Origin: a virus
Lineage: Duplodnaviria; Heunggongvirae; Uroviricota; Caudoviricetes
Reading direction: 5' to 3' (one strand)
Length of the DNA stretch: 54,367 bases
Virus record (IMG/VR): IMGVR_UViG_2531839448_000005
Span: 1 to 54,367 of that record
Part shown: one piece after another, positions 16,873-41,298 of the stretch
Layout of the letters: each line of letters starts with the position of its first letter
How positions within the stretch are numbered: the stretch's first letter is position 1
The notes under the pieces: model-generated
Told to the model about the DNA's origin: nothing
The model's database searches: none
Seen by the model: the letters and a program-made list of their open reading frames with translations, nothing else
Program-made: the position numbers and the translations under genes

Positions 16873-17609
16873 TTAAAGCGAACGGATGCCCACGCTGACC
16901 AGATGTTCAGACAGATCCAGCTCCGGTTCACCACCATTGACCAGCATCCGGCTCATTGCTGTAAACATCGCAACAGGGCCGTCGATTTTGGCTTCCAGCG
17001 TGGATTTATTCGGGAAGATATTGTCGTTTTTGTCCGGTTTTACCGTAACGTTAGACATCATCCAGTTCATGACCGGATGATTGCTGTGATGGAAACGCCC
17101 GGCATAGACCAGTGATTCCGTTTCCTTCATGGCCTCTGACAGATTGCGAACCGTCTGCGGAACCTCCACCAGCGGTATCCCTTCTTCAGCCAGTGCCAGG
17201 CTGAACTGCATCGCGCTCCACGGGTCAAATCCCAGTTCCCTGAGGTTTTCACCACCAATCCATTCCAGTAAGTCACTTTTTATCTGAGCATGATCGATAA
17301 CATCACCATCCGTCAGAATCAGCTTATCCATCTCCGCCCACTTCCGGTAAAGTTCTGCCTGCTGCCGCGAGCATCGTTCCAGCCGTCCTTCCGGAAGCCA
17401 GAATTTAAAATCGGCATGAACATGCCCGTTATCCGTTCGCCAGAGTTTTGCCGCCGCACAGATATCAATCTTATGAGCAAGGTCAACGCCGACCCACATG
17501 GGATACGTTTTCAGCTCATGTCGTGGGGCAATGTATTCGCACTTCTCCCACTTAATCATGTCCATCCAGGCAGACTCTGCTGTTACCCACACATTCATGT
17601 GTTTGGTAA
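16873..17609 (-). pseudogene. terL: terminase large subunit, C-terminal (nuclease) fragment of the resident prophage; separated from its 5' part by the 15 kb insertion
   Basis: ORF begins MNVWVTAESAW and aligns to the C-terminal third of the intact island terL (shared WxxSNV and KPNK motifs); in-frame stop lies immediately upstream inside the island. Confidence 0.85.
17603..17609. repeat. left junction core TTGGTAA (direct repeat with 32655-32661)
   Basis: identical 7 bp at both insertion junctions; flanks join to an in-frame terL. Confidence 0.6.
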
Positions 17610-17683
17610 GAATATTTCAAGTTTTTTAAAATCACCTGTATATCAATCATTTAACATGAAAAACAGTCTTTATAAATCATCGA

Positions 17684-17704
17684 GCAATACACAGCGCAAT
17701 ACAC
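17684..17704. repeat. tandem GCAATACAC arm-type repeat (copy 1)
   Basis: GCAATACACAGCGCAATACAC; near-identical copy at 32504-32524 just upstream of int. Confidence 0.5.
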
Positions 17705-17891
17705 GTATCTGTATTGTTTTAATGCTGATACACACCGTTTTTTGATACAGTGATTCGACCTACCATCGCGAAGCATTTTTATTTCTTGTGTGTAACAATC
17801 TGACGAGGTGAGCACTCAAAGAGATAAGAGGCAGTAGAAATTTCGATCCCCCCCCTGAATGCAATTTTTCGTATATATATATACAAAACAG

Positions 17892-18046
17892 TGCGGGTTA
17901 TGCGGGTTAGCGGGTTATCTTCGCGTGCTAAGTATTTTTTACTCTTTAATATCAATACGTTAAAAACAACGTATCTAAATATCAGCCAGAATGTAACCCG
18001 CAAGACATTCAAAATAACCCGCAAACACCACTCAAATAACCCGCAA
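17892..18046. repeat. iteron cluster A: 3 direct plus 3 inverted copies of GCGGGTTA(T) flanking an AT-rich spacer
   Basis: TGCGGGTTAT, GCGGGTTAG, CGGGTTATC at 17892-17919; TAACCCGCAA at 17994, 18014, 18036. Confidence 0.6.
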
Positions 18047-18125
18047 AAACATCCCTGAAAGTGGGTGCCGATAATACTGAAAATTTATTCCATTAAATGA
18101 GCATTGTCCTCTCTCATCCATTCCG

Positions 18126-19787
18126 TTACACACCATCAAACGTCGCAAGCCGCTCTTTGTGGCTGTCGCTCATATCGAATGCAAATTCCTCATGCTCTGC
18201 CTGGAATGTGCCAAACGCCATCAGCGCCGCAACGCTCGGGTCTATCTTGTTGGATGATTTTTTCTTGTTCGGCTTGATATTGGCGTTCGCGTCACTCTGC
18301 ATCACAACATTACTCATTGACCAGGCCAGCACCGGATCACCACGATGCACAATCACCTTCCGGTTAACAAAAACTTCGAACGATTTCGCCGCCGGACTGA
18401 AACGAAGGTACGTTTGCGGGAACGGCTCCACCTCAAATCCCGCCCCCTGTAGCTGTGTTCTCAGGTGAGTGGCGTTCCATGTATCGAAGCCCACCAGCCT
18501 GATACTGAAATTCTCTGCATCCACCATGATGTCATCACGGATACGGTCATAATCAATGCAGTCACCCGGTGTTGTGCGTATCCAGCCCGCCTTTACCCAC
18601 TGGCGATAAATGGCGCGGTTTTTATTGGCGGGGTTCTGTAACTGAAATTCCGGCAGATAGTGACGGGAAACCAGCATAATCTTTTTACCGACCGGAAAGG
18701 CATAGCACACGCTGGAAATATCGCTGGTTGATGATAAGTCCAGCCCCACGTAGCACTCCTGCCCGTATAAATCCGCCTCCGCGAACGTTCCGGCGCACTC
18801 CGCCCATGCACCGTTACCCATCCACGGCGTAGCCCCCTGACACCAGATATTGAATCGCTTGGTGAGCATTTCCACCCACTGCGACGGAATACCCCGCGCT
18901 TTCTGGATGGTTGAGGCCAGTTTTTCACGATCGACGGAAACATCGATATTGGGATTCGCCTTTATCCACATCGCCGGATCGTCAACCTCGCTTTCATCAT
19001 CCAGCTCGTAAATCAGTACGAACATGGATTCGTTCACCTCTTCACCATCCAGTATCTGGCAGCAATAGTCGTAGTGTTGTTTACAGGCTGAAACAACGTT
19101 GCTCCCCGATGTGGTGATGGCAAATAATAACCCCTCCGGACGCGCCCCCATTCCCAGTTCAAGCGCGGAATAAACCCCGTTGTCAGGGTGCAGGTGATAT
19201 TCATCTACAATGGCAAGACTCGGGTTTGTACCTTCAATGGTTGCCGCTTTTGCTGCCAGTGGCTTTAACAGGCTGTTGGTTTTCGGGTGTATCACCTTGT
19301 GTGCCTGAATATTTACCCGCTTTCGTAACGGTCGGGATAAAAGGCACATCTGACGCGCATCATCAAACACGATCCGCGCCTGATCACGACTCACGGCGGC
19401 GGTGTAAATATCCTGCTGCCCGTTTTCCATAACCAGAAACCAGTTAGCCAGGATAGCGGCGACCGTGGATTTGGCATTTTTTCGCGGTACTTCAATGAAT
19501 GCGCTGGTGTATTTGCGCCGTCCGGTGGCCTTAACCTTAAAGCCCAGGATGCACGCAAAGGCGAACTGCTGCCACGGCTCCAGCTCAATGGGGCTACCGC
19601 GCATTGCGCCTTTTACGTGCGGACACACCCTGGAAAAGGCAATAAACCGCTCCACGACCTCCGGATCGAACGTGTAAAGGGGGTTTTCAAGGTCAGAAAA
19701 ATACCGTTTAACGGCCTGTTTCAGTCGTTTACAGGCCGTAATTTTGCCGTTTTTTACGCCTTCTGCGTACTCATGCCAGGCGGTCAA
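18126..19787 (-). CDS. terL: terminase large subunit (island-encoded, intact)
   Basis: 553 aa; ATPase and nuclease regions homologous to the split resident terL. Confidence 0.85.
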   Translation of the reverse strand: MTAWHEYAEGVKNGKITACKRLKQAVKRYFSDLENPLYTFDPEVVERFIAFSRVCPHVKGAMRGSPIELEPWQQFAFACILGFKVKATGRRKYTSAFIEVPRKNAKSTVAAILANWFLVMENGQQDIYTAAVSRDQARIVFDDARQMCLLSRPLRKRVNIQAHKVIHPKTNSLLKPLAAKAATIEGTNPSLAIVDEYHLHPDNGVYSALELGMGARPEGLLFAITTSGSNVVSACKQHYDYCCQILDGEEVNESMFVLIYELDDESEVDDPAMWIKANPNIDVSVDREKLASTIQKARGIPSQWVEMLTKRFNIWCQGATPWMGNGAWAECAGTFAEADLYGQECYVGLDLSSTSDISSVCYAFPVGKKIMLVSRHYLPEFQLQNPANKNRAIYRQWVKAGWIRTTPGDCIDYDRIRDDIMVDAENFSIRLVGFDTWNATHLRTQLQGAGFEVEPFPQTYLRFSPAAKSFEVFVNRKVIVHRGDPVLAWSMSNVVMQSDANANIKPNKKKSSNKIDPSVAALMAFGTFQAEHEEFAFDMSDSHKERLATFDGV

Positions 19788-20127
19788 GCTCGTCCTCTTC
19801 CTCTGTTTCCGGTGGATTTCTGCGGCGACTTACCGGGTCAAAACCCAGCAAAGAAGCCATTTTGATCATTATTCTTTCAGCGTCAGCCTTTGCGCTCAGG
19901 GCGGGGTTTCTGCTCTCGCTGCCCTGACTGTTAACAATGCTGAACCCGCGCGTGGCAAGGTCTTCGACGGCTTTGCGGTATATGGAGTAGTTAACGCAAT
20001 ACAGCTCCAGATTGCTCCAGTCGGCGGGGGTAAGGTCTTCCCGTCCGGAAAGCTGGCGCGATTTTTCCTTCCACTGCCTGACCGCGATTTCATCCAGGTA
20101 AGCGGGGGCTTTTGGTGGTCTTGCCAT
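19771..20127 (-). CDS. terS: terminase small subunit (P27-like)
   Basis: start MARPPKAPAYLDE; homologous in outline to the resident terS at 33682-34164. Confidence 0.7.
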   Translation of the reverse strand: MARPPKAPAYLDEIAVRQWKEKSRQLSGREDLTPADWSNLELYCVNYSIYRKAVEDLATRGFSIVNSQGSESRNPALSAKADAERIMIKMASLLGFDPVSRRRNPPETEEEDELDRLA

Positions 20128-20246
20128 GTTCTTTTTTCGCCCAATTATTTTCAAAAAAATTCCCGTGCACAAAAATTTGAGGAGGCGGTCGGTGTCCGGC
20201 AGGGACGGTTTTGTCCTGAAAACCTCCCCCACCCCCTCTGACGGCC

Positions 20247-20423
20247 TCACCAGCGATTGCGAAAACATTCCATGACCTCGCGGTCACGGTCGGTTAATCG
20301 CTTCGCTGTGGTGCGTTCTGTGCGCCCTGTCCTGTTGGCTTTGTGCCCTGTCTCCTGTGTCTTCCATAAGTCACGCTGCCTTATCAGTCCACGTATCAGC
20401 CTGTTTTGCTCCTGTTCAGTCAT
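20247..20423 (-). CDS. hypothetical small protein
   Basis: 58-codon frame between HNH and terS; weak. Confidence 0.2.
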   Translation of the reverse strand: MTEQEQNRLIRGLIRQRDLWKTQETGHKANRTGRTERTTAKRLTDRDREVMECFRNRW

Positions 20424-20856
20424 CATCGCCATACATCCAGTCGTTACGGTGTGCCGCCCGTTCTTCCTGCTCGCGATACATACCCGCCTTACGGTTCGCT
20501 TTCGTGGCTGGATCTTCCCGTGTTGTCTTACGGTTATGGCACGTCTGGCACAATGCCTGGTGGTTCCACTCAGGCCAGAAGAGAACATCACCGCCGCCAT
20601 TGATGGGAATGATGTGATCCACCACAAGAGCTGGCGTATAAATCCCCTTAGCCAGACAACGCACGCATAACGGATTTTTGCTCAGGTACAGGGCGCGGTA
20701 TTTGTCCCACTGTCGGGAATACCCGCGCGCGCGGCGGTGTCCCCGTCTGGCATCCTCTGCACGCCATGCAGCCCGCCTGTGATCTTCGCACTTGCCGGAC
20801 TTCACGCGCTTATTACAGCCCGGCTCAGTGCATCGCCTTAATGGTTGCCACGGCAT
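20416..20856 (-). CDS. HNH endonuclease
   Basis: paired CxxC motifs plus HNH-like core DHIIPINGGG...NHQALCQTCHNRK. Confidence 0.8.
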   Translation of the reverse strand: MPWQPLRRCTEPGCNKRVKSGKCEDHRRAAWRAEDARRGHRRARGYSRQWDKYRALYLSKNPLCVRCLAKGIYTPALVVDHIIPINGGGDVLFWPEWNHQALCQTCHNRKTTREDPATKANRKAGMYREQEERAAHRNDWMYGDDD

Positions 20857-21155
20857 CAGTACACCCCTACATCACGATAAACCGACCAGAGCGCAGAAAT
20901 AGCCATAGGCAGTTCAGACTGCTCCACAGGTGAAACCGCTTCCCTGTTCTCGTACAGGAAAGCGATGTACATCAGGCAACCAACACGTATTGCCGGGGTA
21001 AATTCCAGCCCGTCTTCAAAACGTTTCCCGATATGCTTCTGGCAGGCTTCCAGCGCCGCATCGGTATACATTTTCAGAAGTTCGCCCTCACCTGAGAAGT
21101 CATCAAGGCGAAGATGTGCCCTGACTTCATCAGGTGTAATTTTTTCTTCACTCAT
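20856..21155 (-). CDS. head-tail connector protein (gp6-like)
   Basis: start MSEEKITPDEV; about 100 aa; similar in outline to the resident connector. Confidence 0.55.
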   Translation of the reverse strand: MSEEKITPDEVRAHLRLDDFSGEGELLKMYTDAALEACQKHIGKRFEDGLEFTPAIRVGCLMYIAFLYENREAVSPVEQSELPMAISALWSVYRDVGVY

Positions 21156-22362
21156 CTTTTTCACCTTTAATTTCCACCGTCTGCTTCCATGCCTGGCTGA
21201 ACTCGTCACCACCTTCACGCGGCGGCATCCCCTCACGTTCGCGGGCTTCGTTCGGATTCATGATCCCGTTCTTAATCCCTTTCTCATACGTGGCGTAACG
21301 CTCGGTTGGAGTAGCGCGCAGTAAATCGGCTGAATCAAACTCAACCAGATAACGGGTACCAGGTATGGGAGAAGCCACCAGCAAAGCGGCCTTAATTTGC
21401 TGTTCGAAGTTCGCCAGCCATGGGCGCATTGTCATGGTCAGAAACGCGCGGCTTGCCTCACTGAAATTGCTGTAGGTGCTGTTGCTGTATTCCTGAAGAA
21501 AAATCGGCGACACGTTGAACATCCGGGCGATGTCTTCAATGGAGAAGCGACGGGAGGCCAGCCATTCTGCATCCTGGTTACTCATCCCCAGTTGCTTGTA
21601 ATCCATACCCCCTTCAAGGATTGGCGTTTTTCCGGCATTTTTCGCCCCCTTGTAGCGTTCCAGGGCGTCTAATGCCTGTTTACCTTTCACGCCGTCCAGC
21701 CATTCGCCTGACGTGATAATCCCTGCCGCCATCATGCCATCTTTCATAATGCTGGCTCCGTGACGCTGTTGAGCAAGGCCAAGCCCCAGCGCCTCACGGC
21801 AAATCGTGACAGGGGAGCGCCCCAGAAAGCCATCATCCGAGGCATAGCGGAGATGCAGAACTTCTTCCTGCAAATACGTGCGCACCGTTCCTGTATAGGG
21901 TTCGGTGATGGTATAGCGGTATTTGTGTGCGCCAGTGCGTTCCGGTACAACACACCCCGGCGCATAAGGATGAAGTGATTTTGGCTGACCGTCCCGCCCC
22001 CACTCAATAACCGCATAGGCGTTACCGTTCAGCAGGCAGTGACGCATCATTGTGCGTTTAAACTGGTAAGGTGTCTGGCACGAATTAGGCTGCTCATTCA
22101 GCAGAATATCGACCGGGTGACTGTCCAGCCATTCCCGCGCCTCCCTGCCCTTGTCATTGCGTACCAGATACAGATAACACGGCATCGTGGCCACCGCCTC
22201 AGCGATGACAGAAACCGCGTTCATCACAGCAGGCAATGATTCAGCCGTCCCGGCAGAAACATATTCTCCGGATCCGGTATTCGGTACGCCGGACAGCGCC
22301 AGAAAATCATCAATGGACAGGTTACGCAGATCGCTTTTTTTACGACTAAAAGGCCACCACAT
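21148..22362 (-). CDS. portal protein
   Basis: about 405 aa from MWWPFSRKK; pattern resembles the resident portal. Confidence 0.75.
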   Translation of the reverse strand: MWWPFSRKKSDLRNLSIDDFLALSGVPNTGSGEYVSAGTAESLPAVMNAVSVIAEAVATMPCYLYLVRNDKGREAREWLDSHPVDILLNEQPNSCQTPYQFKRTMMRHCLLNGNAYAVIEWGRDGQPKSLHPYAPGCVVPERTGAHKYRYTITEPYTGTVRTYLQEEVLHLRYASDDGFLGRSPVTICREALGLGLAQQRHGASIMKDGMMAAGIITSGEWLDGVKGKQALDALERYKGAKNAGKTPILEGGMDYKQLGMSNQDAEWLASRRFSIEDIARMFNVSPIFLQEYSNSTYSNFSEASRAFLTMTMRPWLANFEQQIKAALLVASPIPGTRYLVEFDSADLLRATPTERYATYEKGIKNGIMNPNEAREREGMPPREGGDEFSQAWKQTVEIKGEKDE

Positions 22363-22363
22363 A

Positions 22364-22924
22364 TCACAACCCCGCCAGTTCAGCCCAGCGATGACGATTA
22401 TTTCCTGTCGGGCGTAATTCAGGGTGCTGTGCAAACAACGAACGGTGGGCAATCTCCACGCCGGATTCGGGATAAGCAGGCATCGACGTTATCGTGATTT
22501 CACGGAGTTCTGCGGCGGTAACAGTGCGCAGATACGGTTTTTGCGCGATATTCCACTCTTCGCATAATGCGCGAAAGCCAAAGCTCATTCCTGTAATGTC
22601 GCCACGCTCCACCAGCGTAAGCACATCTTTTCCAAGCTGGGTATCAGGCGGTGTCAGTTCAAAACGTAGCCCGGTGTTGTCCTCAGTCAGTACCAGTGTT
22701 CCGGATTTGGTGCGCCCCAGCAGTCGGGTATAGTCATGCTCATACAGGCAGCGCACATCATTACCCGCCGCCAGATAGTCAGCAAAAGCCCCCGGCGTGA
22801 ACTGTTCGCGGAATTCGTCCCAGATAATTTCTGAAAGGCTGTTCCAGCGAACGGCATACCCCACCAGCTTTTTATTGCTGGCGGTCAGTTCAGATGTGCG
22901 GATTTCAAAATCGGTGTTTTTCAT
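22364..22924 (-). CDS. prohead protease (HK97 / peptidase U35-like)
   Basis: 186 aa; GYAVRW, YEHD and GMSFGF motifs. Confidence 0.7.
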   Translation of the reverse strand: MKNTDFEIRTSELTASNKKLVGYAVRWNSLSEIIWDEFREQFTPGAFADYLAAGNDVRCLYEHDYTRLLGRTKSGTLVLTEDNTGLRFELTPPDTQLGKDVLTLVERGDITGMSFGFRALCEEWNIAQKPYLRTVTAAELREITITSMPAYPESGVEIAHRSLFAQHPELRPTGNNRHRWAELAGL

Positions 22925-22978
22925 CGGTGTACTCCATAAAGCTGAAAAAGGAGGCCGCAGCCTCCTCCTTACTCATGA

Positions 22979-24148
22979 CTAGCCAGCTTTCATTTCCAGA
23001 ATTTTGATGGCGTTTGAATCCACCACACCACCGCCCAGATATTTATCCGTGTGGACCTTGTAGAATCCGGGTTCAGTAATGTTGTCCGGTCGGGTGCGAA
23101 TCCCTGTTACATGATCAACGATGAAATAACCACGACTGAAATCGCCAACCGCTAGCGGTGCTTTTCCTGCGCCGATGTCCGGCATGGACTCCAGGCAGAA
23201 AACAGGACGACCAAGCAACATATCCGGCGCACCTTCTTTAAGGCTGTCGCGCCAGATATAATCGCCATTCTCATTTTTCAGCTTCTGTAGTGTCCCTGCC
23301 GTGCCCGAGTTCATCACCCAGACGGCATTTTTGCGGTATTTCGCTTTCAGCTTGTAGAGAATGTCGATCAGTTCGTCCGCTGTAATGGCGGTTCCACTTG
23401 CCGCTACCACTTTTTCAATGGTGCCAAAAGCGCGGGTTTTGTCACTGGTCGCCGCACGGGTGTAAGCCATGAAGCCTTTCGGCTTGCCGTTACCGTCGCC
23501 ATTAACAAAATCATCCTCTTCGGTGCTGGCGAACGTGTCGGCAATTTCGGAGGATAACCAGCCCAGAATATCCACCTCTGAAAAATCCAGGATTTCCTGC
23601 GTGGTTTTCGGGTAGGCGTAGATCGGATTCAGCTTGATGGTTACACGTTCAATTTTCGGGGTGTTGGTTTCACTACGTGCGCTGCCTTCTGTGCCTCGTC
23701 CTACAGTTGCGCCGCCAGTGGAAACCAGTTTCTGAAACTCATTTGATTTTGCGGTCTTCACGGTCGCGATCACGCGCATAACACTGTCATCCTGTAGCTG
23801 GCGCATGACTTCGCGATCAAGCTCAGGAATTACGGTATATCCGCCATCCCTGCCGCTGTCAGTGCTGGTGGACAGTGATCGCACATCTCCGGTTACGATG
23901 TAGTTACGCAATTCATCAGATGATAATTTCTGGATGCCCGTTCCTGGCTTGCTGCGTTCTTCATCAGCCACAGACTCGAGGCGGTAAATTTCTGTGTCGA
24001 GGGAATCGGCTTTTGCACGCAGTTCATCAAACTGTTTGCCCTCGTCATCGTTCAGGCTGCGGTTTTCACTGTCGGCTTTTTCCAGCAGGGATCGCATCTG
24101 GTTTTTCAGGGCGGTTTTTTGCTGGCGGAGTTCGATTAATTTCTTCAT
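22979..24148 (-). CDS. major capsid protein, HK97 family
   Basis: 389 aa; coiled-coil N-terminus; GDGNGKPKGFMAY and DSNAIK motifs parallel the resident capsid protein. Confidence 0.85.
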   Translation of the reverse strand: MKKLIELRQQKTALKNQMRSLLEKADSENRSLNDDEGKQFDELRAKADSLDTEIYRLESVADEERSKPGTGIQKLSSDELRNYIVTGDVRSLSTSTDSGRDGGYTVIPELDREVMRQLQDDSVMRVIATVKTAKSNEFQKLVSTGGATVGRGTEGSARSETNTPKIERVTIKLNPIYAYPKTTQEILDFSEVDILGWLSSEIADTFASTEEDDFVNGDGNGKPKGFMAYTRAATSDKTRAFGTIEKVVAASGTAITADELIDILYKLKAKYRKNAVWVMNSGTAGTLQKLKNENGDYIWRDSLKEGAPDMLLGRPVFCLESMPDIGAGKAPLAVGDFSRGYFIVDHVTGIRTRPDNITEPGFYKVHTDKYLGGGVVDSNAIKILEMKAG

Positions 24149-24422
24149 GAAGGTTTTCTCGTATTGGTTAAGATTCAGGACGTGAAACCAACACGGAGGG
24201 AGCGCCGCCCGACACTCTCGGCATCTCGCAGATCAACCCGGCATCGCGCAGGGGGTCAGGCGGCATTGTGGCGGCTCACGTCTGAGTGCCACACGCCAAC
24301 ATATACATAAAAATCAGTATGTAAACATCAGCCAGAATCACCGAACAACCTGGAACAACCACGAACAAATAATTTACAAAACCTGAAAAAAAGACCTGGA
24401 GAAAATCCAGGCCTTTATCGCT

Positions 24423-24671
24423 TTATTGTTTCACTGGATCCCGCATTCTGCGTCTTATTTTCCACAGATATTCGATCATCGCTTCCACCTGCTCACGATT
24501 GGTTGCGAAAATTTCCCCGGTCAGTGAGCTGCGCAGAAAATCATGATGATCCACAACAAACAACGCATCGGAAGAAAGCAGACGGCGATATTTTTTTGCT
24601 GTCGTGGTTTCCAGATCATCAAAACCATGAAACTTTTTATGTTGCTGGACTTCTTCAAATGTCACTGGCAT
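24423..24671 (-). CDS. hypothetical protein
   Basis: 82 aa ORF. Confidence 0.35.
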   Translation of the reverse strand: MPVTFEEVQQHKKFHGFDDLETTTAKKYRRLLSSDALFVVDHHDFLRSSLTGEIFATNREQVEAMIEYLWKIRRRMRDPVKQ

Positions 24672-25204
24672 GTATCCCCCTTTGCCGCCCGGCGCTGGCG
24701 CTTGTGCTTCTCATTCAGCGCCATCAGCCGCGTTTCTGCCTCCTGCTGTTCCTGTGGTGTCACTTCCCCACATGGCTGGCCTTTCAGGTCGTATCGTACC
24801 CCACCAGCAACCAGGGCGCGGTAATAGCGCGGAGACTGCGCATAAGATGCCAGCGTCGCACGTAATGCCCCCGGCCCGAATGCCAGCCCCCTGACGGCGA
24901 GATCCTGCATCAGGTCGTCGAATATCCCCACCTTAAGCGGCTTCGGTGCTTCCCTGTTGAATAAGTCAGGCCACATCTCAGTGAGGCGGTTAACGCGCCT
25001 GCGGTTTTTGCGCTGGCGTTTGGTCATATGCCGCCACGGTGTCACCCCTGTGGGCTGCCCTTTGCGGCTCTGCTGTGCGTTCTGATTGCCGGGTATCACT
25101 TTATGCGCCGATGTGGTTTTATCCCGCTCTTGCGCCGCCTGCGTCGTTTTCTGCGGCGTGCCGTAAATGCCTTTCGGTTTTCGGTTAATGGTCAGCTTTG
25201 TCAT
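24662..25204 (-). CDS. ProQ/FinO-domain RNA-binding protein
   Basis: LKVGIFDDL...ALRATLASYAQSPRYYRALVAGGVRYDLKGQPCGEVT aligns by eye to the E. coli ProQ N-terminal domain as recalled. Confidence 0.6.
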   Translation of the reverse strand: MTKLTINRKPKGIYGTPQKTTQAAQERDKTTSAHKVIPGNQNAQQSRKGQPTGVTPWRHMTKRQRKNRRRVNRLTEMWPDLFNREAPKPLKVGIFDDLMQDLAVRGLAFGPGALRATLASYAQSPRYYRALVAGGVRYDLKGQPCGEVTPQEQQEAETRLMALNEKHKRQRRAAKGDTCQ

Positions 25205-25368
25205 GCCTTCCCCTGTAATTACTCTGTTCGCTGTTGTGAATTAAAACGGTATGTTATCCCCGTACAGGTCATCGTGCTGGCCTGTCTGTTGTTTTGCCCT
25301 GTTCAGTGCGTCAGTGGCCTGCCCCTGTTGGCCTTTTTTGCCGCCCGGTCGCGCCGTTCTCGCACTGA

Positions 25369-25665
25369 TTACGCTGTCTGCGATGACCTGCCAGCCCTGC
25401 CGCGTTTCGCCGTTCTGCCCTGTCCACTGCTTACCTGCATGTTACCCGCCACGCTCACCAGTTCGCCTTTGCGGTGTTTTGCCAGTGCGTCGGCCTGTCT
25501 GCCAAACGCCAGGACGGATAACCACATCGTCGCCGTTCCGTCATCTGCCTGGCTGCATGGCAGGGGAACCGCCATACTCGCCATCGCCATTTGTGTTCCC
25601 TTGCTGGTGGTCTTTAACTGCGGGTCAGCCACCAGCCGCCCGTAAGCCGCTATCTGTGCTGTCAT
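25369..25665 (-). CDS. SSB-like OB-fold protein (tentative)
   Basis: 98 aa; pattern GRLVADPQL...WLSVLAFGRQADAL...GELVSVAGNMQV resembles an SSB core. Confidence 0.35.
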   Translation of the reverse strand: MTAQIAAYGRLVADPQLKTTSKGTQMAMASMAVPLPCSQADDGTATMWLSVLAFGRQADALAKHRKGELVSVAGNMQVSSGQGRTAKRGRAGRSSQTA

Positions 25666-25728
25666 GCTGTCTGCTCTCCGGTTTTAACGTTGATGGTTAC
25701 GCTTGTTTACACCCTTACGGTGAAATTC

Positions 25729-25854
25729 TGCGGGTTATAATCGCACTTTTGCGGGTTATAACTGCCGTTTTGCGGGTTACGTGCGGGTTATTGATTTCCT
25801 TTTTATTCATACAGTTAATGCACTTATATACATGATAACCCGCATAACCCGCAA
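25729..25854. repeat. iteron cluster B: 4 direct plus 2 inverted copies of TGCGGGTTA(T) flanking an AT-rich spacer; candidate replication origin
   Basis: copies at 25729, 25751, 25771, 25782 (direct) and 25835, 25845 (inverted); immediately 3' of the primase gene. Confidence 0.6.
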
Positions 25855-25875
25855 CTTTTCACCTCACACAGGGGG

Positions 25876-27999
25876 TTAATCTTCTGCCTCAGGCTGGAAC
25901 ATCAGCACGTAAAAAACATGCTGCTTCCCCCCAATTTTGCCGAGCGCCTTTTTCTTGTAACGGCGATCGTTACCCGCTTCCAGCATTCCGGCAGCACTCA
26001 ACGCGCGGGCAAAGTGAGACGGATTAAATCCCTGTGCTATCTCACCCTCAAATACATGCGGGAACGTGTAAAAACGGAACTCGTCATCTTCGTTTCTGAT
26101 ACTCCCCTTTCTGTATCCGGCAAGTTCTTTAATCGATAAATCACGCTCGTCGGTATTGGGCCACGGAAGGTATCTGCTGAATCCGAACGACGCTAAAAAA
26201 GCTTCTGCCTGTTCAACCATCTGTTTAAATTCCCTGTTACCCGTGCCGAACTCCTTCACCCAGGCATTAAAATTATGCTGTATGGCATCGCGGCATTCCT
26301 GCTCATCCCAGCCAGTAACATGACCTGAAAGCACAAGCGCGGCCTCCAGTATGGCAAATCGCTCCCCCACACGGTGAACCTGTTCGCCGTAGCTCTCCGG
26401 TATCAGGTTGCGCCACCGCTCACGGCATGTCCTTACCGTGTCCTTTGCCTCCTGCTGGTGTTCTGCCAGCCATTTAACCCACTCACGACCCGCCGCCCCG
26501 TGATTTTCTGTCCAGGCATCCTTTAACGCGTCTGCGTGCGCCTTTCCGGTGCTGTATTCGTGAAATTGCGTGGCTTTTTCCATCGGAACGTTAAGCAGGC
26601 GGACAAGCTGCCCCGCTTTGACTTTTATCCCCTCCGTTTTGAGGAATGTCTCAACGTCCATTTCTCCGGTGCTGATTGCCACCGTGCGCCAGTGTTTGAT
26701 CTCCCTGTTGCCGCCGTCCTTCGCCCCCTGTAATTTCCCCGAACCGTTAAACAGCGTATAGGCTGACGTGGACACCTCCCGCGCGTTTCCGGCCTGGCCT
26801 ATTTCATCCAGGGGTAAAAGCCCGTCATTGTGTGCCTCTGCTTCGTTGGCGATACCTAACGCTGTGCCGTACCAGGTCAGCCGCTGCGCGTCCGGCTCTC
26901 CCCATAAACTTGATGCGATGTTCTGTGTGGTGGTTTTCCCTGCCGATGACTGTTCGAAAAGATGTACCCCGAAGCCGTCAGCGCCCACCAGCCCGATTAA
27001 TGGTGCGGATAACGATACCGCCACACCCAGCATCATGGACGGATTACCACCAGCCAGCCGCGCAACGGTATCGCGCCAGCCCTCCGCCGTTCCTGCCACG
27101 GAATAGCCATTAACAGCAGCCGTTTTTCCGGTAAACAGGACTGGCTTTTCGCAATCACCAATGACCGAACCGTCCGGCATGATGTACGCGCCAAAATGCC
27201 AGCCCGTTGTTGTGCTTAACTGCCATTCCTCATGGCTTCCGCTTAACTGCATCCAGTCAGCCAGGATAGCCCTGTATTTACCGTTGGTTGTTACGTTCAG
27301 TCCGTGGTCTTTCAGCAACCGCCAGCCGTCACGGTCGCCAATGCCACCGCACGGAACCGCCATTGTGATGACTTCATGGTTTGCTAATTTTTTCCAGCGC
27401 ATCACGCGGTAATGCTCTTTACCGATTGTCCCCGTTCCCAGTAGTTCAAGCGGGGAACATAACCACGTCTCAGGCCGGATAATTTCGCCTGACTGCTTAT
27501 CCACTTTTGGCGTTACCCAGAAAACACCATCGGCGCGACTTTCAACGCGGGGCTTTAATTCATCATCGCCCTGGATTTCTGTGATTTTTTTCTTTAAGGG
27601 CAACACCAGACTTTCCCCGCGCTCGTATTCGTCTTTGAGGCGAGGCAACTGGTCGGATAAATCCGCCGGGCTGATGTCAGTTATCCCCGCGTATTCGTAT
27701 ACGGTCTTCACGCCAGCCACAGCCAGCAACGTGACGATCTGTGTAAGGCTACGTTCAGTGATGTGCCCTGCGCGGTAAACACGCACACACTGACGGCTAT
27801 CATCAATAATTTGATAACCGGTAATATCTTTCAGGTGTTCATCTGACAGAACGACAGGCGGCACATTGTCGGCGGCAATATGCTTACCTGCCCATTCCTG
27901 CCACTCTTTCGCATGGCTCCACGCATCACTACCCGCAAAGATGATAACCTCCGTCATTTTGTCGGCTGGCTGGTGCTTTAAGTTTGGTGCGCGCTTCAT
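25876..27999 (-). CDS. primase / replication protein (P4 alpha-like, DUF927-type)
   Basis: 707 aa; central Walker-like GEPDAQ...SSAGKTT region; adjacent iterons. Confidence 0.6.
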   Translation of the reverse strand: MKRAPNLKHQPADKMTEVIIFAGSDAWSHAKEWQEWAGKHIAADNVPPVVLSDEHLKDITGYQIIDDSRQCVRVYRAGHITERSLTQIVTLLAVAGVKTVYEYAGITDISPADLSDQLPRLKDEYERGESLVLPLKKKITEIQGDDELKPRVESRADGVFWVTPKVDKQSGEIIRPETWLCSPLELLGTGTIGKEHYRVMRWKKLANHEVITMAVPCGGIGDRDGWRLLKDHGLNVTTNGKYRAILADWMQLSGSHEEWQLSTTTGWHFGAYIMPDGSVIGDCEKPVLFTGKTAAVNGYSVAGTAEGWRDTVARLAGGNPSMMLGVAVSLSAPLIGLVGADGFGVHLFEQSSAGKTTTQNIASSLWGEPDAQRLTWYGTALGIANEAEAHNDGLLPLDEIGQAGNAREVSTSAYTLFNGSGKLQGAKDGGNREIKHWRTVAISTGEMDVETFLKTEGIKVKAGQLVRLLNVPMEKATQFHEYSTGKAHADALKDAWTENHGAAGREWVKWLAEHQQEAKDTVRTCRERWRNLIPESYGEQVHRVGERFAILEAALVLSGHVTGWDEQECRDAIQHNFNAWVKEFGTGNREFKQMVEQAEAFLASFGFSRYLPWPNTDERDLSIKELAGYRKGSIRNEDDEFRFYTFPHVFEGEIAQGFNPSHFARALSAAGMLEAGNDRRYKKKALGKIGGKQHVFYVLMFQPEAED

Positions 28000-28310
28000 T
28001 TTGCCTTTCCCCGTTCACGAATAATTTCACGTACTGCCTTAATGCGTTCCATTCCTGTAACGCGCATGATTCTGTCGATGTCGCTTAATTCTGCTGGTGG
28101 TGCTTTACTTACCAAGGTGAACTCCCTGTCAAAGCGCATATGTGACGACACGCAGGGATGCGCATAACCTTCGCGGATATAGGTCACACGAAAATCATCG
28201 ACGGTTTTGATCGTTATCGTGCTGCCGTATTTATCCTGGAAAATATCGCCGGGGCGGATTTCAGGCCGAGCGGGGCCGCTGGCAGTAAAGCCAGAATTTT
28301 TCTTTTTCAT
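27996..28310 (-). CDS. hypothetical protein
   Basis: 104 aa ORF overlapping the primase start. Confidence 0.4.
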   Translation of the reverse strand: MKKKNSGFTASGPARPEIRPGDIFQDKYGSTITIKTVDDFRVTYIREGYAHPCVSSHMRFDREFTLVSKAPPAELSDIDRIMRVTGMERIKAVREIIRERGKAK

Positions 28311-28315
28311 GTTTT

Positions 28316-28564
28316 TTACTCCAGAGGCAGCTTTTTAGCGGCGAGCTCAATATCAGATGTCAGAGAAACCTGTGTATTTGCCAGGTCTAACAACAAAGAA
28401 ATAAGAATTTCTTCTCTGCTATCGGATTTATCGGTGCTAAGGCTGTTCATCCACATATTGACGACTTCCCTGATTTTTTTCGCAGAGTGCAGGGCTTCAA
28501 ATGCCAGGTCTTCAATATCATGTTTATTTCGCATAATCGCCCCCGCCATTTTCACAATCAGCAA
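28316..28564 (-). CDS. hypothetical protein
   Basis: 82 aa ORF. Confidence 0.3.
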   Translation of the reverse strand: MLIVKMAGAIMRNKHDIEDLAFEALHSAKKIREVVNMWMNSLSTDKSDSREEILISLLLDLANTQVSLTSDIELAAKKLPLE

Positions 28565-28769
28565 TCAGGATGGCTTTTGCCTCATTCAGCGCCATATCAG
28601 CACTAAATTGCATAACAGCCAGTGAGTGAGGAACGAAAGCCCCGGCATATTCTGTTTCGCTGGTGGCGTGCTTATGCGCCTTGTCTGCGATAACAGAAAT
28701 ATCAATCAGCGCGTGCATCAGCGTTTTGATGGCTTCGGCGGCTGCGTCCGGACGGGTGTTATTGCACAT
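28524..28769 (-). CDS. hypothetical protein
   Basis: 81 aa ORF. Confidence 0.3.
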   Translation of the reverse strand: MCNNTRPDAAAEAIKTLMHALIDISVIADKAHKHATSETEYAGAFVPHSLAVMQFSADMALNEAKAILIADCENGGGDYAK

Positions 28770-29073
28770 GGCGCACCTCCTGACGAATACGGGCAGCGAA
28801 TACCATCACGCAGCCAGCCGGGGATTGCTGGCGTGCTTCCTGTTCGCTAGTGGCCTCAATGGTAATCACACGCGGTTGTGCCGTGCTCAGGGCGATAAAA
28901 CGCCAGATGTATTTATTCAGGTTGTGCGAGTCCCGCCCTTGCGGGTGTGTGGTATGATTTAACATAGCTACCTCGATAATCTTGCTATCGTTGGTGGTTA
29001 GAAGCCCGGTTAGTGTTAGCGCACTGCCGGGTTTCGTCGTTTGTATTTCAATAAAACCATTGGTGTGTTTCAT
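28759..29073 (-). CDS. hypothetical protein, first gene of the island leftward operon
   Basis: manual call: ATG at 29071-29073 inside the operator motif, 105 codons; the 393 aa track ORF is a read-through artefact. Confidence 0.35.
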   Translation of the reverse strand: MKHTNGFIEIQTTKPGSALTLTGLLTTNDSKIIEVAMLNHTTHPQGRDSHNLNKYIWRFIALSTAQPRVITIEATSEQEARQQSPAGCVMVFAARIRQEVRHVQ

Positions 29074-29150
29074 GTTATTTTGGAGTGAAACACACGTCAA
29101 GCCTTTTTTGTATTTCTTTTTTGTGTATACTGAAACACACCAAATTTGAG
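29050..29150. promoter_or_regulatory. divergent promoter region with three copies of operator-like motif TGAAACACAC / GTGTGTTTCA
   Basis: copies near 29055-29068, 29083-29096 and 29138-29150 between divergent genes. Confidence 0.5.
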
Positions 29151-29161
29151 GAGTTTCAGTT

Positions 29162-29467
29162 ATGGCGACTACCAACAAAAACGCTAAATCACAATTGACC
29201 ACCGTCAGAGTCCCCCACGATGTTATGGAGGGCATGGAATCCGTAAAACTGGACGGCGAAAGCAACGCCGGATTCATAGTAACCGCCATGCGCGGTGAGA
29301 TCGCCCGCCGCCAGGCAGAAGGAAGCGGAGAAAATCCCCTGGTTTCTTCGCTCGATGCACTGGCGCAGGTGGAAAAAATTGGAGTCAAGGCTGCCGAGGA
29401 GATCGGGCAACTCGTCACCGTCGCGCGTGAAGAACTCCAGCGACGCAAGGTCAAAGAGCAGGAATAG
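29162..29467 (+). CDS. hypothetical protein, candidate island regulator
   Basis: 101 aa ORF divergent from the island operon, directly downstream of the operator triplet. Confidence 0.4.
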   Translation: MATTNKNAKSQLTTVRVPHDVMEGMESVKLDGESNAGFIVTAMRGEIARRQAEGSGENPLVSSLDALAQVEKIGVKAAEEIGQLVTVAREELQRRKVKEQE

Positions 29468-29524
29468 CCACTATCAGCGCCATAGTTTGAGGAACGCAGG
29501 CGCATTGCTTTACAGGACAGCACC

Positions 29525-29704
29525 ATGAGCGACACAGAATCAACCAAAACACCATCACCAACTCGTAAGAGACGACGCAAAAATATAGCGCATGAACATG
29601 AATCAGAAAGATTCGCACCTTGTTCGTTTGCTCTTGAGAAATTCCTTAAAGAGCACAGGAAAAAGCTCTCGTTGCAAACCTTGGAACGAACCAAATCTGA
29701 CTGA
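29525..29704 (+). CDS. small basic protein
   Basis: manual 59-codon ORF MSDTESTKTPSPTRKRRRKN; below the track length cutoff. Confidence 0.25.
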   Translation: MSDTESTKTPSPTRKRRRKNIAHEHESERFAPCSFALEKFLKEHRKKLSLQTLERTKSD

Positions 29705-29770
29705 TCACATTGCCCACCAGCCGCAAATGTGGCATTGTTGGTGATGCTTTTGTTTTCCCTTGTTCCCACT

Positions 29771-29800
29771 GGCGACCCTTTTGCGGTCGCCTTTGTTTTG
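29771..29800 (+). terminator. rho-independent terminator
   Basis: GGCGACC/GGTCGCC stem followed by TTTGTTTTG. Confidence 0.6.
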
Positions 29801-29892
29801 CCTGTTATCCGGCAATAGTGGCGCTTCGTCACCTGTCTGATATAATTCCACAGCTTATATTCATTTTTTGCGCAGTAGGTTAATTGTTCGCA

Positions 29893-29926
29893 AGGGCGCT
29901 CCGGCAACGGGGCGCTTTTTGTTTTT
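29893..29926 (+). terminator. rho-independent terminator
   Basis: GC-rich hairpin followed by TTTTTGTTTTT. Confidence 0.5.
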
Positions 29927-30084
29927 ACCCACCAGCACAATAAAAATCTTCATTTTCCATTTTTGTAAAATTTCATGCTTTCCGGACGACTGGTCATATG
30001 TCATTTTTTAGCAGAAGATTTTGCCTTGCTGGTGGGTAGCTTCCCGGTCAACACGATGTACCGTATAATCAACACCGCGTGTGG

Positions 30085-30663
30085 TTACTGAATACGCTCA
30101 CCAAAGTAAAACTCAGGCTGGTATTCACGTATCAGCCTTTTTTCTTCTTCCTCCAGCTCACGCTTTTTGCGCTTACATGCCTGTAGCTCCCTCCCCTTCT
30201 CACTGGCACTTATCTGGTATTGCTCTTTGCGGCGGGAAAAATCCTGTAATGCGCCCCACGGGATACCATAAGCCCCCGTTTTTCTGATACCCGGTATCAC
30301 ATTTCTGAATACCCAGTTACTGAAACGATGAGCAAATGTGCCAGGCGTCGTTGCTTTGCGGCTGCGGGCTATTAGTTTGTAGAAACCTGACTCGGAGATA
30401 ATGCTCATATTCTGATTTCCTCCGGGGGTGTAAGTTAAATTTACTCCCTTTTCGTCATCATCAAGCATCTGCAACGCCGTACGCGAATTGGTCAATTCCA
30501 GCGCAGCACAAACATCCTTTGCAACAAACCACGGATCGCCGTTTAGATACACCACACGAACATCCACGCCATCAAAGCGCAGAACGACCAGATCACGAAT
30601 ATCACAGAATTTTTTCACATGACGTGCGTCACCCTTGCCCGTCACGGCAATATTTTTATTCAT
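30085..30663 (-). CDS. Bro-N domain protein (antirepressor-like)
   Basis: N-terminal Bro-N-like pattern RVVYLNGDPWFVAKDVCAAL...ESGFYKLI...FSNWVFRNVIPGIRKTGAYG. Confidence 0.65.
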   Translation of the reverse strand: MNKNIAVTGKGDARHVKKFCDIRDLVVLRFDGVDVRVVYLNGDPWFVAKDVCAALELTNSRTALQMLDDDEKGVNLTYTPGGNQNMSIISESGFYKLIARSRKATTPGTFAHRFSNWVFRNVIPGIRKTGAYGIPWGALQDFSRRKEQYQISASEKGRELQACKRKKRELEEEEKRLIREYQPEFYFGERIQ

Positions 30664-30720
30664 TGCTTTTTACCTCACATACAAAAAACCCCGCATTGCG
30701 TGGTGCGGGGTTGTCGGTAA

Positions 30721-30999
30721 TTACTTATTGGCGTTTTTGTATGGGCTGTTTACTTCCTTTACTCCTGGCGGATGCATAACCCACCAGAGCACATCAGAGA
30801 GCAACCAGGAAACAGACACTTTCCCTAAATGAGCACGAGCAGGAAATGCTCCCTCCTGTTCAAGTACCCAACGTCTGCTTCTTGAAAGCCCGGTACGATT
30901 GGCACACTCATGTTCGCGTATACGGCGATCATACGGTTCGCCATGATCTTTCAGAATCTGAATGCGTTCTTCGGGTGTAGGATAAATAAATTTTTGCAT
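30721..30999 (-). CDS. AlpA-like small regulator (tentative)
   Basis: start MQKFIY; small basic protein adjacent to alpA. Confidence 0.4.
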   Translation of the reverse strand: MQKFIYPTPEERIQILKDHGEPYDRRIREHECANRTGLSRSRRWVLEQEGAFPARAHLGKVSVSWLLSDVLWWVMHPPGVKEVNSPYKNANK

Positions 31000-31062
31000 A
31001 AAAATATCACCTATAAAAAAACCCGCCAAAAGACGGGTTGATTATATCTCATTTAATTTAGC

Positions 31063-31296
31063 TCAGGGTTTCCATTCACCTTTTACCCATTCCAGCACCT
31101 CAGATAAGCGCCAGACTTTTGTTTGTGGGCCAATACATATTTTTCGTGGAAATTTTCCTTCCTTTTCAAGTAACGATCTGTGTCTCCTGCCAAGAGCGGT
31201 TAACCATGCACATTCATCCTCCTTAATCATCCTGTCGATTGTTTCATCATTTTCAAGTTCTTCACGCGTAACTATTTGAATCATTACTGTCACCAC
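31063..31296 (-). CDS. alpA: AlpA-family transcriptional regulator
   Basis: 77 aa ORF directly upstream of int; small basic winged-helix-like protein. Confidence 0.55.
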   Translation of the reverse strand: MVTVMIQIVTREELENDETIDRMIKEDECAWLTALGRRHRSLLEKEGKFPRKICIGPQTKVWRLSEVLEWVKGEWKP

Positions 31297-31329
31297 TAAT
31301 TTGCTTATTCAGATAGTCGTACCACCAGT

Positions 31330-32483
31330 TCATAGCTTCTTTTTTCTGTCCATATACTGGCTTCTGTTATAAACCCCGGCAACACCGCCTAATGTGTGCC
31401 CAAGCAACTGTTCAACCACATTATGTTCAAAACCATGATCACTTAGTTTTGTGGCAAACACTCTTCGCATATCATGCGCCGTCCATTTCTCCGAGTGTTT
31501 CATCCTTTTCCATGTCTTACCGATAGTTACGCTTGCCGTACACTGACGCATATCAAACCCAATCACATTTTCTTTGTTACCTGTTATTTTTTTAACGTAA
31601 CTAACCAGTTAAACATGCCATCAGGAATCGGTCTGATTATTTCCCTGCCATTTTTGCTATGATCAGCGGGAACGCGCCATAATTTCTTATCAAAATCCCA
31701 CTCTACCCAGGACGACAGTAATACTTCTGACAGTCGACAACCAAAAACTACCAGGAAACGTAAAATAATTCGGTTTTCATATGATAATTCGTGATTGTCA
31801 TAATCAGTATTAATACTTCGCCATAAATCTCTGATTTCATCATCTGTTAAAACCCTGCTTCTTCGCGCAGACTTTTTTCCCACATCACAGACCTCAAGAT
31901 CATCAATTTCATGACTAATCGCGTATTTTCTTACCCTACAAAATTTAAGCGCCTGTTTTGATATACGCAACAAAGCTCCGGCCTGTACAGGTGCTACTTT
32001 TTTTATTTTGTCAAAACACTTAATCCACATAGATATAGAGCAATCACTAAGTGGTACATGACCAATCACCGGATAAATATGTTTACCAAAGCACTGCCTG
32101 ATATGTTCTGCTCCCCTACGCTTATCCATTGCATAATTATCAAGCCAGTATTCAAGTGCCTCACGAACGGTAACAGGTTGCAAGGTGGCTTCCCGTTCAA
32201 TTTTTATCTGAATCCGTGGATCTCTGCCCTCCGCAAGCCAGGTTCGACACTGATCGCGCATCTCTCTCGCTGATTTGAGACTCAGATCAGGATATTTTCC
32301 AAGTGTCAGCCAGATGGGCGCGGTTCCCCTTCCCGCCAGTCTGTAAAAGAAAACAAAACTAACACATCCGTATTTACTGACCCGTACCGAAAGCCCGTTA
32401 CCATCAGCGATGGTTTCCTGCCTCTCACTCCTGCGCCCAAGCAGGGAACGAAGTTTTTTATCGCTCAGTTTGTTTAGCGCCAT
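31330..32483 (-). pseudogene. int: tyrosine integrase (P4-like), frame-broken at an A7 tract near 31580-31590
   Basis: 311 aa N-terminal ORF plus 78 aa C-terminal ORF carrying HxxR...Y catalytic region (HDMRRVFAT...GVYNRSQY); adding one A rejoins the frames. Confidence 0.8.
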
Positions 32484-32503
32484 GTGATTTATAACCCGTT
32501 TTT

Positions 32504-32524
32504 GCAATACACAGTGCAATACAC
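32504..32524. repeat. tandem GCAATACAC arm-type repeat (copy 2)
   Basis: GCAATACACAGTGCAATACAC just upstream of the int start. Confidence 0.5.
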
Positions 32525-32654
32525 AAATGATGAAAACAGCCAGAACCTTCCAGAAAAAACAAAAACGACGAACAAGAAAAAATCTTTTTCTTTCATTTGG
32601 TTACTAAAAAAATCAGGACAGGTCGCACTGTTGTTACGGCGTGATGTTACTTTC

Positions 32655-32661
32655 TTGGTAA
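32655..32661. repeat. right junction core TTGGTAA
   Basis: direct repeat of 17603-17609. Confidence 0.6.
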
Positions 32662-37419: not shown

Positions 37420-37494
<75 letters not shown>

Positions 37495-37497
37495 ATA

Positions 37498-37573
<76 letters not shown>

Positions 37574-37575
37574 AC

Positions 37576-37652
37576 TGGACCGCCACCGGGGACTCGAACC
37601 TCGCACACTCAACTTAAAGGGTTGACGCTCTTTCCTGATGAGCTAGTGGCGG
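37576..37652 (-). tRNA. tRNA-like, anticodon loop CCUUUAA (putative UUU/Lys, non-canonical C33)
   Basis: 77 nt; 7 bp acceptor stem, TTCGAGT T-loop, CCA end; one mismatch in the T stem. Confidence 0.45.
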
Positions 37653-37653
37653 C

Positions 37654-37729
37654 TGGTGGCCCTTGCTGGATTTGAACCAGCGACCTGGCGATTATGAGTC
37701 GCTCGCTCTCACCACTGAGCTAAAGGGCC
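37654..37729 (-). tRNA. tRNA-Ile2/Met (anticodon CAU), ileX/ileZ-like
   Basis: 76 nt cloverleaf, anticodon loop CUCAUAA, close to E. coli ileX as recalled. Confidence 0.8.
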
Positions 37730-41142: not shown

Positions 41143-41298
41143 TTACTCCTCAGGTTCGTAAGCTGTGAAGACAGCGACCTCCGTCTGGCCGGTTCGGATT
41201 CGTACCTCGCAGAGGTCTTTCCTCGTTACCAGTACCGTCACTATGACGGTTAAACAGATGACGATCAGGGCGATTAACATCGCCTTTTGCTGCTTCAT
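41143..41298 (-). CDS. hokD: Hok/Gef-family type I toxin
   Basis: MKQQKAMLIALIVICLTVIVTVLVTRKDLCEVRIRTGQTEVAVFTAYEPEE, near-identical to HokD/RelF as recalled. Confidence 0.85.
   Translation of the reverse strand: MKQQKAMLIALIVICLTVIVTVLVTRKDLCEVRIRTGQTEVAVFTAYEPEE

Follow-up and report, generated by a model that had tools for sequence, protein, structure and literature searches.

The window analysed here, a stretch of 54,367 nt from the IMG/VR record IMGVR_UViG_2531839448_000005, contains a helper-type lambdoid E. coli prophage whose large terminase gene (terL) is split by an island of ~15 kb (interval 17603-32661). A preliminary description of this DNA had interpreted the island as a satellite resembling those phage-inducible chromosomal islands that are of the capsid-forming type (cf-PICIs), integrated between two copies of a 7-bp direct repeat, and had left open whether terL is a programmed target of such elements or was hit only once. 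The prophage, the two parts of its terL gene and the attachment (att) sequences are located as follows.

1-53476, minus strand: helper-type lambdoid prophage at tRNA-Ser(CGA)/mtfA, its left end lying outside the window
16873-17602, minus strand: 3' fragment of the prophage terL, encoding the TerL C-terminus (open reading frame (ORF) 16873-17598)
17603-17609: att core TTGGTAA (TTACCAA on the coding strand) at the terL-distal end, attR in island gene orientation
17684-17703, minus strand: doubled arm motif TGTATTGCgctgTGTATTGC, ~78-97 nt from the core centre, 0 mismatches
32504-32523, minus strand: second doubled arm motif TGTATTGCactgTGTATTGC, starting ~135 nt from the core centre, 0 mismatches
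32655-32661: att core TTGGTAA at the integrase end, attL in island gene orientation, the junction being that of the published attL alignment
32662-33682, minus strand: 5' fragment of the prophage terL, codons 1 to ~341

The direct repeat at the ends of the interval is thus present as described, and the insertion into terL was borne out by reconstruction of the interrupted gene. The ORF 32489-33682 starts as a large terminase, continues for 57 codons inside the island and stops at 32489, and the in-silico removal of positions 17610-32661 yields a single in-frame protein of 585 aa with TerL_ATPase and TerL_nuclease domains. This rebuilt protein is identical at 585 of 585 positions to the intact prophage TerL of E. 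coli AR_0077 (WP_001140902.1), with which both fragments align as one gene. They are therefore colinear halves of a single terL, which rules out a chance repeat, and the gene was split without loss or gain except for the 7-bp duplication. As it stands, the truncated ORF with its extension from 32489 to 32661 would encode the whole ATPase domain minus most of the nuclease domain.

Integration took place at an attB inside the F-T-K codons (~342-344) of the prophage terL, a gene of P27/HK97 type, where it was recombined by a P4-type tyrosine integrase with an attP that has the 7-bp core TTACCAA and doubled TGTATTGC arm motifs on both sides. As the recombination is conservative, excision would restore terL exactly, so that the earlier characterisation of the helper as packaging-defective holds for the integrated state and fails as a permanent condition. 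The key genes of the island lie on the minus strand, like terL, and are co-oriented with the late operon of the helper.

Both the site and its flanks correspond to a published group. Tommasini, Mageeney and Williams (2023, NAR Genom Bioinform 5:lqad036; PMC10111431) described helper-embedded PICIs (HE-PICIs), a set of 491 satellites that all use a single integrase clade and occupy 14 sites, spread over nine late genes of prophages. Their Supplementary File 1 contains a 15-kb E. coli group, A_Terminase_1_246, with the att identity 'ttaccaa', the variants 'tcacaaa' and 'tcacgaa', and 68 entries in the attL and attR alignment files (PMC10111431). The identity 'ttaccaa' is the reverse complement of the TTGGTAA of the window, and the window core and both junctions agree at every base with the displayed portions of the published attL and attR alignments. 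The same source lists Eco5444.15 as one example of the group and, as another, Eco33.15 at FN554766.1/2250958-2235714, which is the E. coli 042 element, with the helper Eco33.57.zinT|mtfA (PMC10111431). We found the E. coli 042 element independently and then matched it to the listed Eco33.15.A_Terminase_1_246, and the prophage locus in the window is that of its published helper.

The arm motifs agree as well. The doubled attP motif of HE-PICIs, tgTGTATTGCantgTGTATTGCa, is reported as two co-oriented copies that flank the crossover, at 81 +/- 2 nt on its upstream and 132 +/- 2 nt on its downstream side (PMC10111431). The window has exactly two copies of it, both free of mismatches, and in the reconstructed attP one motif ends 78 nt upstream of the core centre and the other starts 135 nt downstream (133 counting the 'tg' prefix), which is within ~2-3 nt of the published values, the exact margin varying with the definition of the centre. 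The doubled motif is also carried by the HE-PICI 11capE and by three other terL-embedded islands, and it is absent from the empty site and from two chromosomal cf-PICIs (loci L004 and L005, the proteins of L005 being considered through its annotation).

The core itself co-varies at both ends of an element, being TTGGTAA in the window and TTTGTGA in the island of NZ_OZ282453.1, with TCACGAA as a third variant in the published alignments. The overlap sequence thus varies with the target allele and is no fixed property of the island, and all three variants are synonymous in TerL. At the position homologous to attB, the terL gene of the island itself (~18850-18870, codons 309-311) reads TCACCAA, one mismatch away from TTACCAA; its flanks are only 29/60 identical to the attB flanks, which presumably prevents self-integration.

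Gene content of the island and of the resident prophage

The genes of the island were identified by Pfam, PHROGs and NCBIfam, and every gene named in the preliminary description was recovered by at least one of them. They are listed below in coordinate order together with the two iteron clusters, with identities to the O157:H7 cf-PICI at phoQ|roxA where these apply.

17893-18044: second ori-like iteron cluster, downstream of the island terL near attP, with 3 direct and 3 inverted GCGGGTTA copies around an AT-rich spacer
18126-19787, minus strand: TerL, 553 aa, Pfam TerL_ATPase and TerL_nuclease; 93%, and 32% to the prophage TerL
19771-20268, minus strand: TerS, P27 family (19771-20127 with the RefSeq start); 88%
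20247-20432, minus strand: small conserved ORF between HNH and terS, phrog_3173; 82% to the positionally equivalent hypothetical ORF
20416-20856, minus strand: HNH endonuclease, packaging cofactor; 84%
20856-21155, minus strand: head-tail adaptor/connector (Ad1, gp6-like; Pfam, PHROGs, NCBIfam)
21148-22452, minus strand: portal; 81%
22364-22924, minus strand: prohead serine protease (S78), by domain match
22979-24148, minus strand: HK97-fold major capsid protein; 63%, and 36% to the prophage capsid
24423-24671, minus strand: accessory ORF, phrog_1957
24662-25204, minus strand: ProQ/FinO-family protein
25369-25665, minus strand: truncated SSB, 98 aa, with a frameshift common to NZ_OZ282453.1
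25730-25852: iteron cluster by the primase gene, with 4 direct and 2 inverted GCGGGTTA copies, downstream of pri
25876-27999, minus strand: DUF927 primase/replicase, 707 aa; 83%
27996-29073, minus strand: DUF4222 protein, two small ORFs and an Icd-like protein (28759-29073)
29162-29467, plus strand: divergent YlcI/YnfO-family gene, with strong plus-strand terminators downstream (29771-29919)
30085-30663, minus strand: Bro-N protein of anti-repressor type
30721-31296, minus strand: two AlpA-family genes, with a strong intrinsic terminator after each (30712-30687 and 31039-31020)
31262-32483, minus strand: P4-type tyrosine integrase (Arm-DNA-bind_3 and Phage_integrase), broken in the window, 407 aa when repaired

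Two of these genes, the integrase and the SSB gene, are present as had been described, yet neither is whole in the window: the SSB is truncated and the integrase is split into ORFs of 311 aa (31584-32519) and 78 aa (31330-31566). A cos site probably lies in the region of the small ORF 20247-20432. No tail, tape-measure, holin, endolysin or other lysis gene was found in the interval by Pfam, PHROGs and NCBIfam, in agreement with the earlier reading of the island, and PADLOC found no defence system among its accessory genes. A 393-aa ORF with a TTG start at 28759-29940 (minus strand) was discarded as spurious, as it is of low complexity and runs across real genes on either strand; its true coding part is limited to the final 104 codons (28759-29073), which are the Icd-like gene.

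The 8-mer GCGGGTTA occurs in 17 exact copies in the window, against 1.4 expected by chance, and 12 of the 17 fall in the two ori-like clusters at 17893-18044 and 25730-25852, so that the two iteron clusters noted previously were recovered. In both, direct and inverted copies surround an AT-rich spacer. The cluster near attP is conserved in the islands of NZ_OZ282453.1 (L001) and of E. coli ETEC4090 (L003), and in the O157 cf-PICI (L004, 18926-19232) both clusters stand side by side next to pri. The displaced cluster may serve as a second origin, in handcuffing or in a function linked to packaging.

Rfam scans of the island, by gathering threshold and by E-value, detected no immunity RNA of the C4/isrK type. 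One sub-threshold Rfam match, to the antitoxin RNA SymR, was obtained at 28966-29038 on the plus strand, opposite the 5' portion of the Icd-like gene; with 33.6 bits (gathering score 61; E = 0.004), it may be either an antisense regulator or a chance hit.

The resident prophage retains Lom, J (split), I, K, L, an HK97-type tape measure, the tail tube and head genes, as well as terS, HNH, an M15 endolysin, holins and the interrupted terL. It also carries Q, cro/cI-like regulators, a RecE-like exonuclease and a split integrase gene adjoining tRNA-Ser(CGA) and mtfA. Its tail is that of a lambda-like siphovirus. The proposal that the island sits in a helper-type prophage is therefore upheld, as the prophage is lambdoid and keeps its tail, lysis and Q genes; the further statement that its tail module stays intact is not literally true of the assembly, in which gpJ is split. 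Between Q and the lysis genes lies a cluster of four tRNA genes (Gly, Thr, Lys, Met), and the prophage also has a hok/sok locus and a DicF RNA (coordinates listed as 37420-37729 for the tRNA cluster, 41293-41468 for hok/sok and 48911-48962 for DicF).

Relationship to known satellites and recurrence of the insertion

Proteobacterial cf-PICIs were described by Alqurainy et al. (2023) as elements of ~15 kb with int-alpA-rep, followed by capsid-protease-portal-connectors and then hnh-terS-terL. The late genes of the island have this same order (capsid-protease-portal-connector-HNH-terS-terL). In addition to the identities listed above, the protease, connector and integrase are 63%, 58% and 45% identical to those of the O157:H7 cf-PICI, an element that we infer to be of the EcCIEDL933 type. 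The head and packaging proteins of the island are only 27-40% identical to those of the resident prophage. Capture of the head module from the resident helper was accordingly rejected, because identities of 58-93% to the chromosomal cf-PICI against 27-40% to the helper place the module in the cf-PICI lineage. Gene order and these identities support the earlier view of the island as a cf-PICI-like satellite, as judged at the level of sequence. Counted by hand against the cfPICI model of SatelliteFinder (de Sousa et al. 2023), 10 of the 11 core components are present, a number that the scheme still allows as 'Type B'; de Sousa et al. also note that satellites inside prophages complicate detection.

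With EcCIEDL933 and its relatives (Alqurainy et al. 2023) the island shares the int-alpA-pri left half, the late gene order, the size of ~15 kb and the lack of tail and lysis genes. It differs from cf-PICIs in that its integrase is only 45% identical, its att site lies in a prophage gene and not in the chromosome, it has an extra AlpA gene, the Bro-N anti-repressor-type gene and ProQ/FinO, and one of its iteron clusters has been moved downstream of terL. The genes of EcCIEDL933 build small capsids that package only the satellite and are attached to helper tails. A terL mutant of phage HK106 still mobilises EcCIEDL933, the particles being small PICI capsids on phage tails. EcCIEDL933 is reported to be harmless to its helper, whereas the island in the window interrupts the helper terL in cis; having its own cf-PICI capsid and packaging genes, the satellite can afford to break that gene. 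The 16.5-kb record LR881103.1, named 'Escherichia phage vB_KppS-Ant' and labelled 'induced prophage', has a 76% match to the capsid-portal region of the island, and its size suggests a packaged cf-PICI deposited as a phage.

With respect to HE-PICI group A:Terminase_1:246 nothing substantive differs, and the island is a member: target gene and codon, att, junctions, doubled TGTATTGC motif, 15-kb size, zone order, co-orientation and helper locus are all the same. The four zones are present in order, namely integration (int, AlpA), Bro, replication (primase, SSB, ori) and late. The repaired integrase is 50% identical over its full length to that of 11capE and 45% to that of the chromosomal cf-PICI (pairwise comparisons only), and its membership of the HE-PICI clade is implied by the identical att site. 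The founding HE-PICI, 11capE/50icd of E. coli NRG857c, also has the doubled attP motif; it differs from the island in its target, which is the capsid gene E and not terL, in its size of 11 kb and in carrying HEPN and DUF262 genes. The late zone of 11capE consists of capsid and decoration genes only, and it hence needs the packaging machinery of its helper. In the HE-PICI paper the name cf-PICI does not appear and experiments on this site group are not reported; the supplement flags a terminase/integrase fusion in E. coli 042 as needing re-annotation (PMC10111431).

Satellite P4 resembles the island in having a P4-type integrase (Arm-DNA-bind_3), an AlpA-family regulator, a primase-driven replicon and helper dependence. 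It differs in its integration site, which is a tRNA gene, in lacking genes for capsid and terminase, in using Sid to remodel the capsids of P2, and in its C4/isrK RNA, for which no counterpart was found in the island. A different parallel is offered by the regulatory-switch prophages of 'active lysogeny', such as the Listeria comK prophage, in which a site-specific integrative element interrupts a gene reversibly, the reading frame being regained on excision; there a phage interrupts a gene of its host, whereas in the window a satellite interrupts a gene of its own helper.

The insertion was then followed across a set of 5,426 complete genomes of E. coli. Of these, 935 have the terL allele surrounding the site, which is uninterrupted in 905, and 36 have the integrase|terL junction. 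These 36 come from pigs, poultry, cattle, humans and water; they include near-clonal isolates and correspond to ~25 independent lineages. Thus ~4% of the E. coli genomes with this terL allele hold such an insert, and the intact target is also found in 11 sequenced temperate phages, both myoviruses and siphoviruses. Because the junction recurs in 36 genomes and forms a published HE-PICI site group, terL is a programmed integration target and not a one-off event; the question left by the preliminary description had in fact been answered in 2023 (PMC10111431), and its suggestion to look for the same island and flanks elsewhere was followed here with this outcome.

The same integrase and att module occur in the terL genes of different prophages. 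The E. coli 042 element has the same split point in a helper with a different lysis cassette and capsid allele, and NZ_OZ282453.1 has a 99.9%-identical island in a terL allele that is ~5% diverged, with the core TTTGTGA at both ends. In ETEC4090 (NZ_CP122620.1) the helper has a contractile tail (tail sheath, tail terminator) and lies at another chromosomal locus; together with the siphovirus-tailed helper of the window, it shows that one terL target spans two tail types. The embedded island of strain 06-00048 has a RepA helicase replacing the DUF927 primase. GF31 (NZ_CP172152.1, 13474-19189) has a decayed composite at potB, in which the island is cut off after the Icd-like gene and fused to a tail-fibre remnant; its terL fragment is itself truncated, and composites can thus erode in place.

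The head and packaging module is more widespread than the insertion. A total of 538 genomes contain it, 163 of them at a coverage of 80% or more, and of these only 36 have it in terL. Strain DAX4 carries a 97%-identical module on an island at hpt|gcd with another integrase, from which the embedded form looks like an integrase/att exchange on a cf-PICI chassis.

Interpretation and alternative explanations

Taken as a whole, the locus is best explained as a terL-embedded HE-PICI of the cf-PICI type that makes its own capsid, packages its own DNA and uses the tails and lysis functions of its helper, an explanation to which we assign a probability of about 0.85. Following SOS induction, and as judged from its relatives, the composite prophage would excise and replicate, and late transcription antiterminated by Q would read through lysis-HNH-terS-terL' into int and alpA, because the stretch from terL' to int was free of terminators in a simple promoter/terminator scan; those that follow the two alpA genes would be overridden. 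Int and AlpA would then excise the island, which would replicate from the GCGGGTTA iterons with its own DUF927 primase, build small HK97-fold capsids and package only its own DNA with its own HNH-TerS-TerL. These capsids would join tails made by the helper, which would also supply lysis. As long as the island is integrated the helper would make no TerL, so its packaging would be blocked and later delayed, and the satellite would need no helper TerL. This would be in line with the HE-PICI model, in which interruption delays the expression of a helper gene and does not kill it; for 11capE/50icd, induction is followed by composite excision, replication and satellite excision, and the interrupted late gene is expressed only afterwards (PMC10111431).

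Several points weigh against this explanation. We infer excision, capsid formation and tail use from homology, both for this element and for its site group, and activation by read-through is a model, of which a simple promoter/terminator scan proves nothing. A tblastn search with the head-closure protein of the O157 cf-PICI, whose gene lies between portal and connector in that element, found no homologue in the island, which has a single head-tail gene (20856-21155); given this missing gene, tail joining may differ from that of the O157 cf-PICI. If the integrase frameshifts and the SSB truncation are real, this copy would be unable to excise or might replicate poorly, and a real split in gpJ would leave the resident prophage without functional tails to supply.

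As an alternative, this copy could be an immobilised, decaying remnant within a cryptic prophage whose terL is permanently broken, the frameshifts in the island integrase, SSB, gpJ and the prophage integrase all being real. Indeed, gpJ is split into 3434-4789 and 1392-3404 (with the break at ~3404-3470) and the prophage integrase into 52310-52981 and 52882-53334 (at an A run at ~52975), in addition to the two pieces of the island integrase; the SSB frameshift is common to NZ_OZ282453.1, and decayed composites such as that of GF31 do exist. However, the five indel differences from two independent relatives (at 31339, 31586, 17658, 17775 and 17961) are all A/T homopolymers that are one base shorter in the window only, which is the signature of under-calling in assembly. 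The T runs at 31339 and 31586 are those that break the island integrase, which becomes a 407-aa protein once both are repaired. Elsewhere the island shows only ~6 substitutions in 15 kb relative to a copy with an intact integrase. On the other hand, a comparison with AR_0077 over 6.3 kb of DNA from the head and terminase genes, made to see whether indel errors are frequent in general, gave 0 indels, which tempers the explanation by assembly error. The homopolymer frameshifts in the island and prophage integrases and the gpJ split are nevertheless probably assembly errors, and a decayed copy appears rather unlikely; in any case, this alternative concerns the state of the copy and not the identity of the element.

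Two other accounts would deny the element its place as a terL-specific satellite, and both are extremely improbable. A chromosomal cf-PICI might have entered the prophage gene by a single off-target event, for which the identical core of only 7 bp and the documented off-target events of HE-PICI integrases (PMC10111431) could be invoked, but the survey refutes this, as 36 complete genomes share the junction across a diversity of terL alleles, hosts, prophages and chromosomal loci. The 68 published alignment entries of the site group (PMC10111431) and an attP motif specific to the helper-embedded clade point the same way. The interval might instead be native prophage DNA, that is, a duplicated or exchanged head-packaging module of a hybrid phage, since prophage and island both encode HNH, TerS, TerL, portal, protease and capsid of HK97 type. 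Yet identity between the two sets is only 27-40%, an integrase, AlpA, a primase and an origin belong to the interval itself, and the same module lies outside prophages at phoQ|roxA and hpt|gcd. The uninterrupted terL of 905 genomes and 11 sequenced phages already refutes a native origin, and the reading of the interval as an insertion stands.

The family, the insertion site and near-identical elements had already been catalogued in 2023 (PMC10111431), so that the present analysis adds little by way of discovery. What it adds is that the terL-embedded HE-PICIs are cf-PICIs, a link that we did not find stated in the HE-PICI and cf-PICI literature examined, and which is a modest synthesis. The HE-PICI concept explains the location and the hit on terL, and the cf-PICI concept explains why a broken terminase is tolerated. 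Beyond this, and only tentatively, since the odds seem to lie somewhat against it, these elements might be a cf-PICI lineage with a swapped integrase and att, which would have turned harmless tail-borrowing into control of the helper in cis: Q-dependent late transcription of the helper would serve as the induction signal, helper packaging would be withheld until the satellite leaves, and the helper would be the donor of tails and lysis.

The locus offers a clean and checkable case of nested parasitism, in which the gene that houses the satellite is one of its own helper virus. Annotation can easily mistake such a composite for a single defective prophage with a pseudogenised terL. If the integrase has indeed been swapped, a terL target common to siphovirus-tailed and contractile-tailed prophages could give one satellite access to different tails and host ranges.

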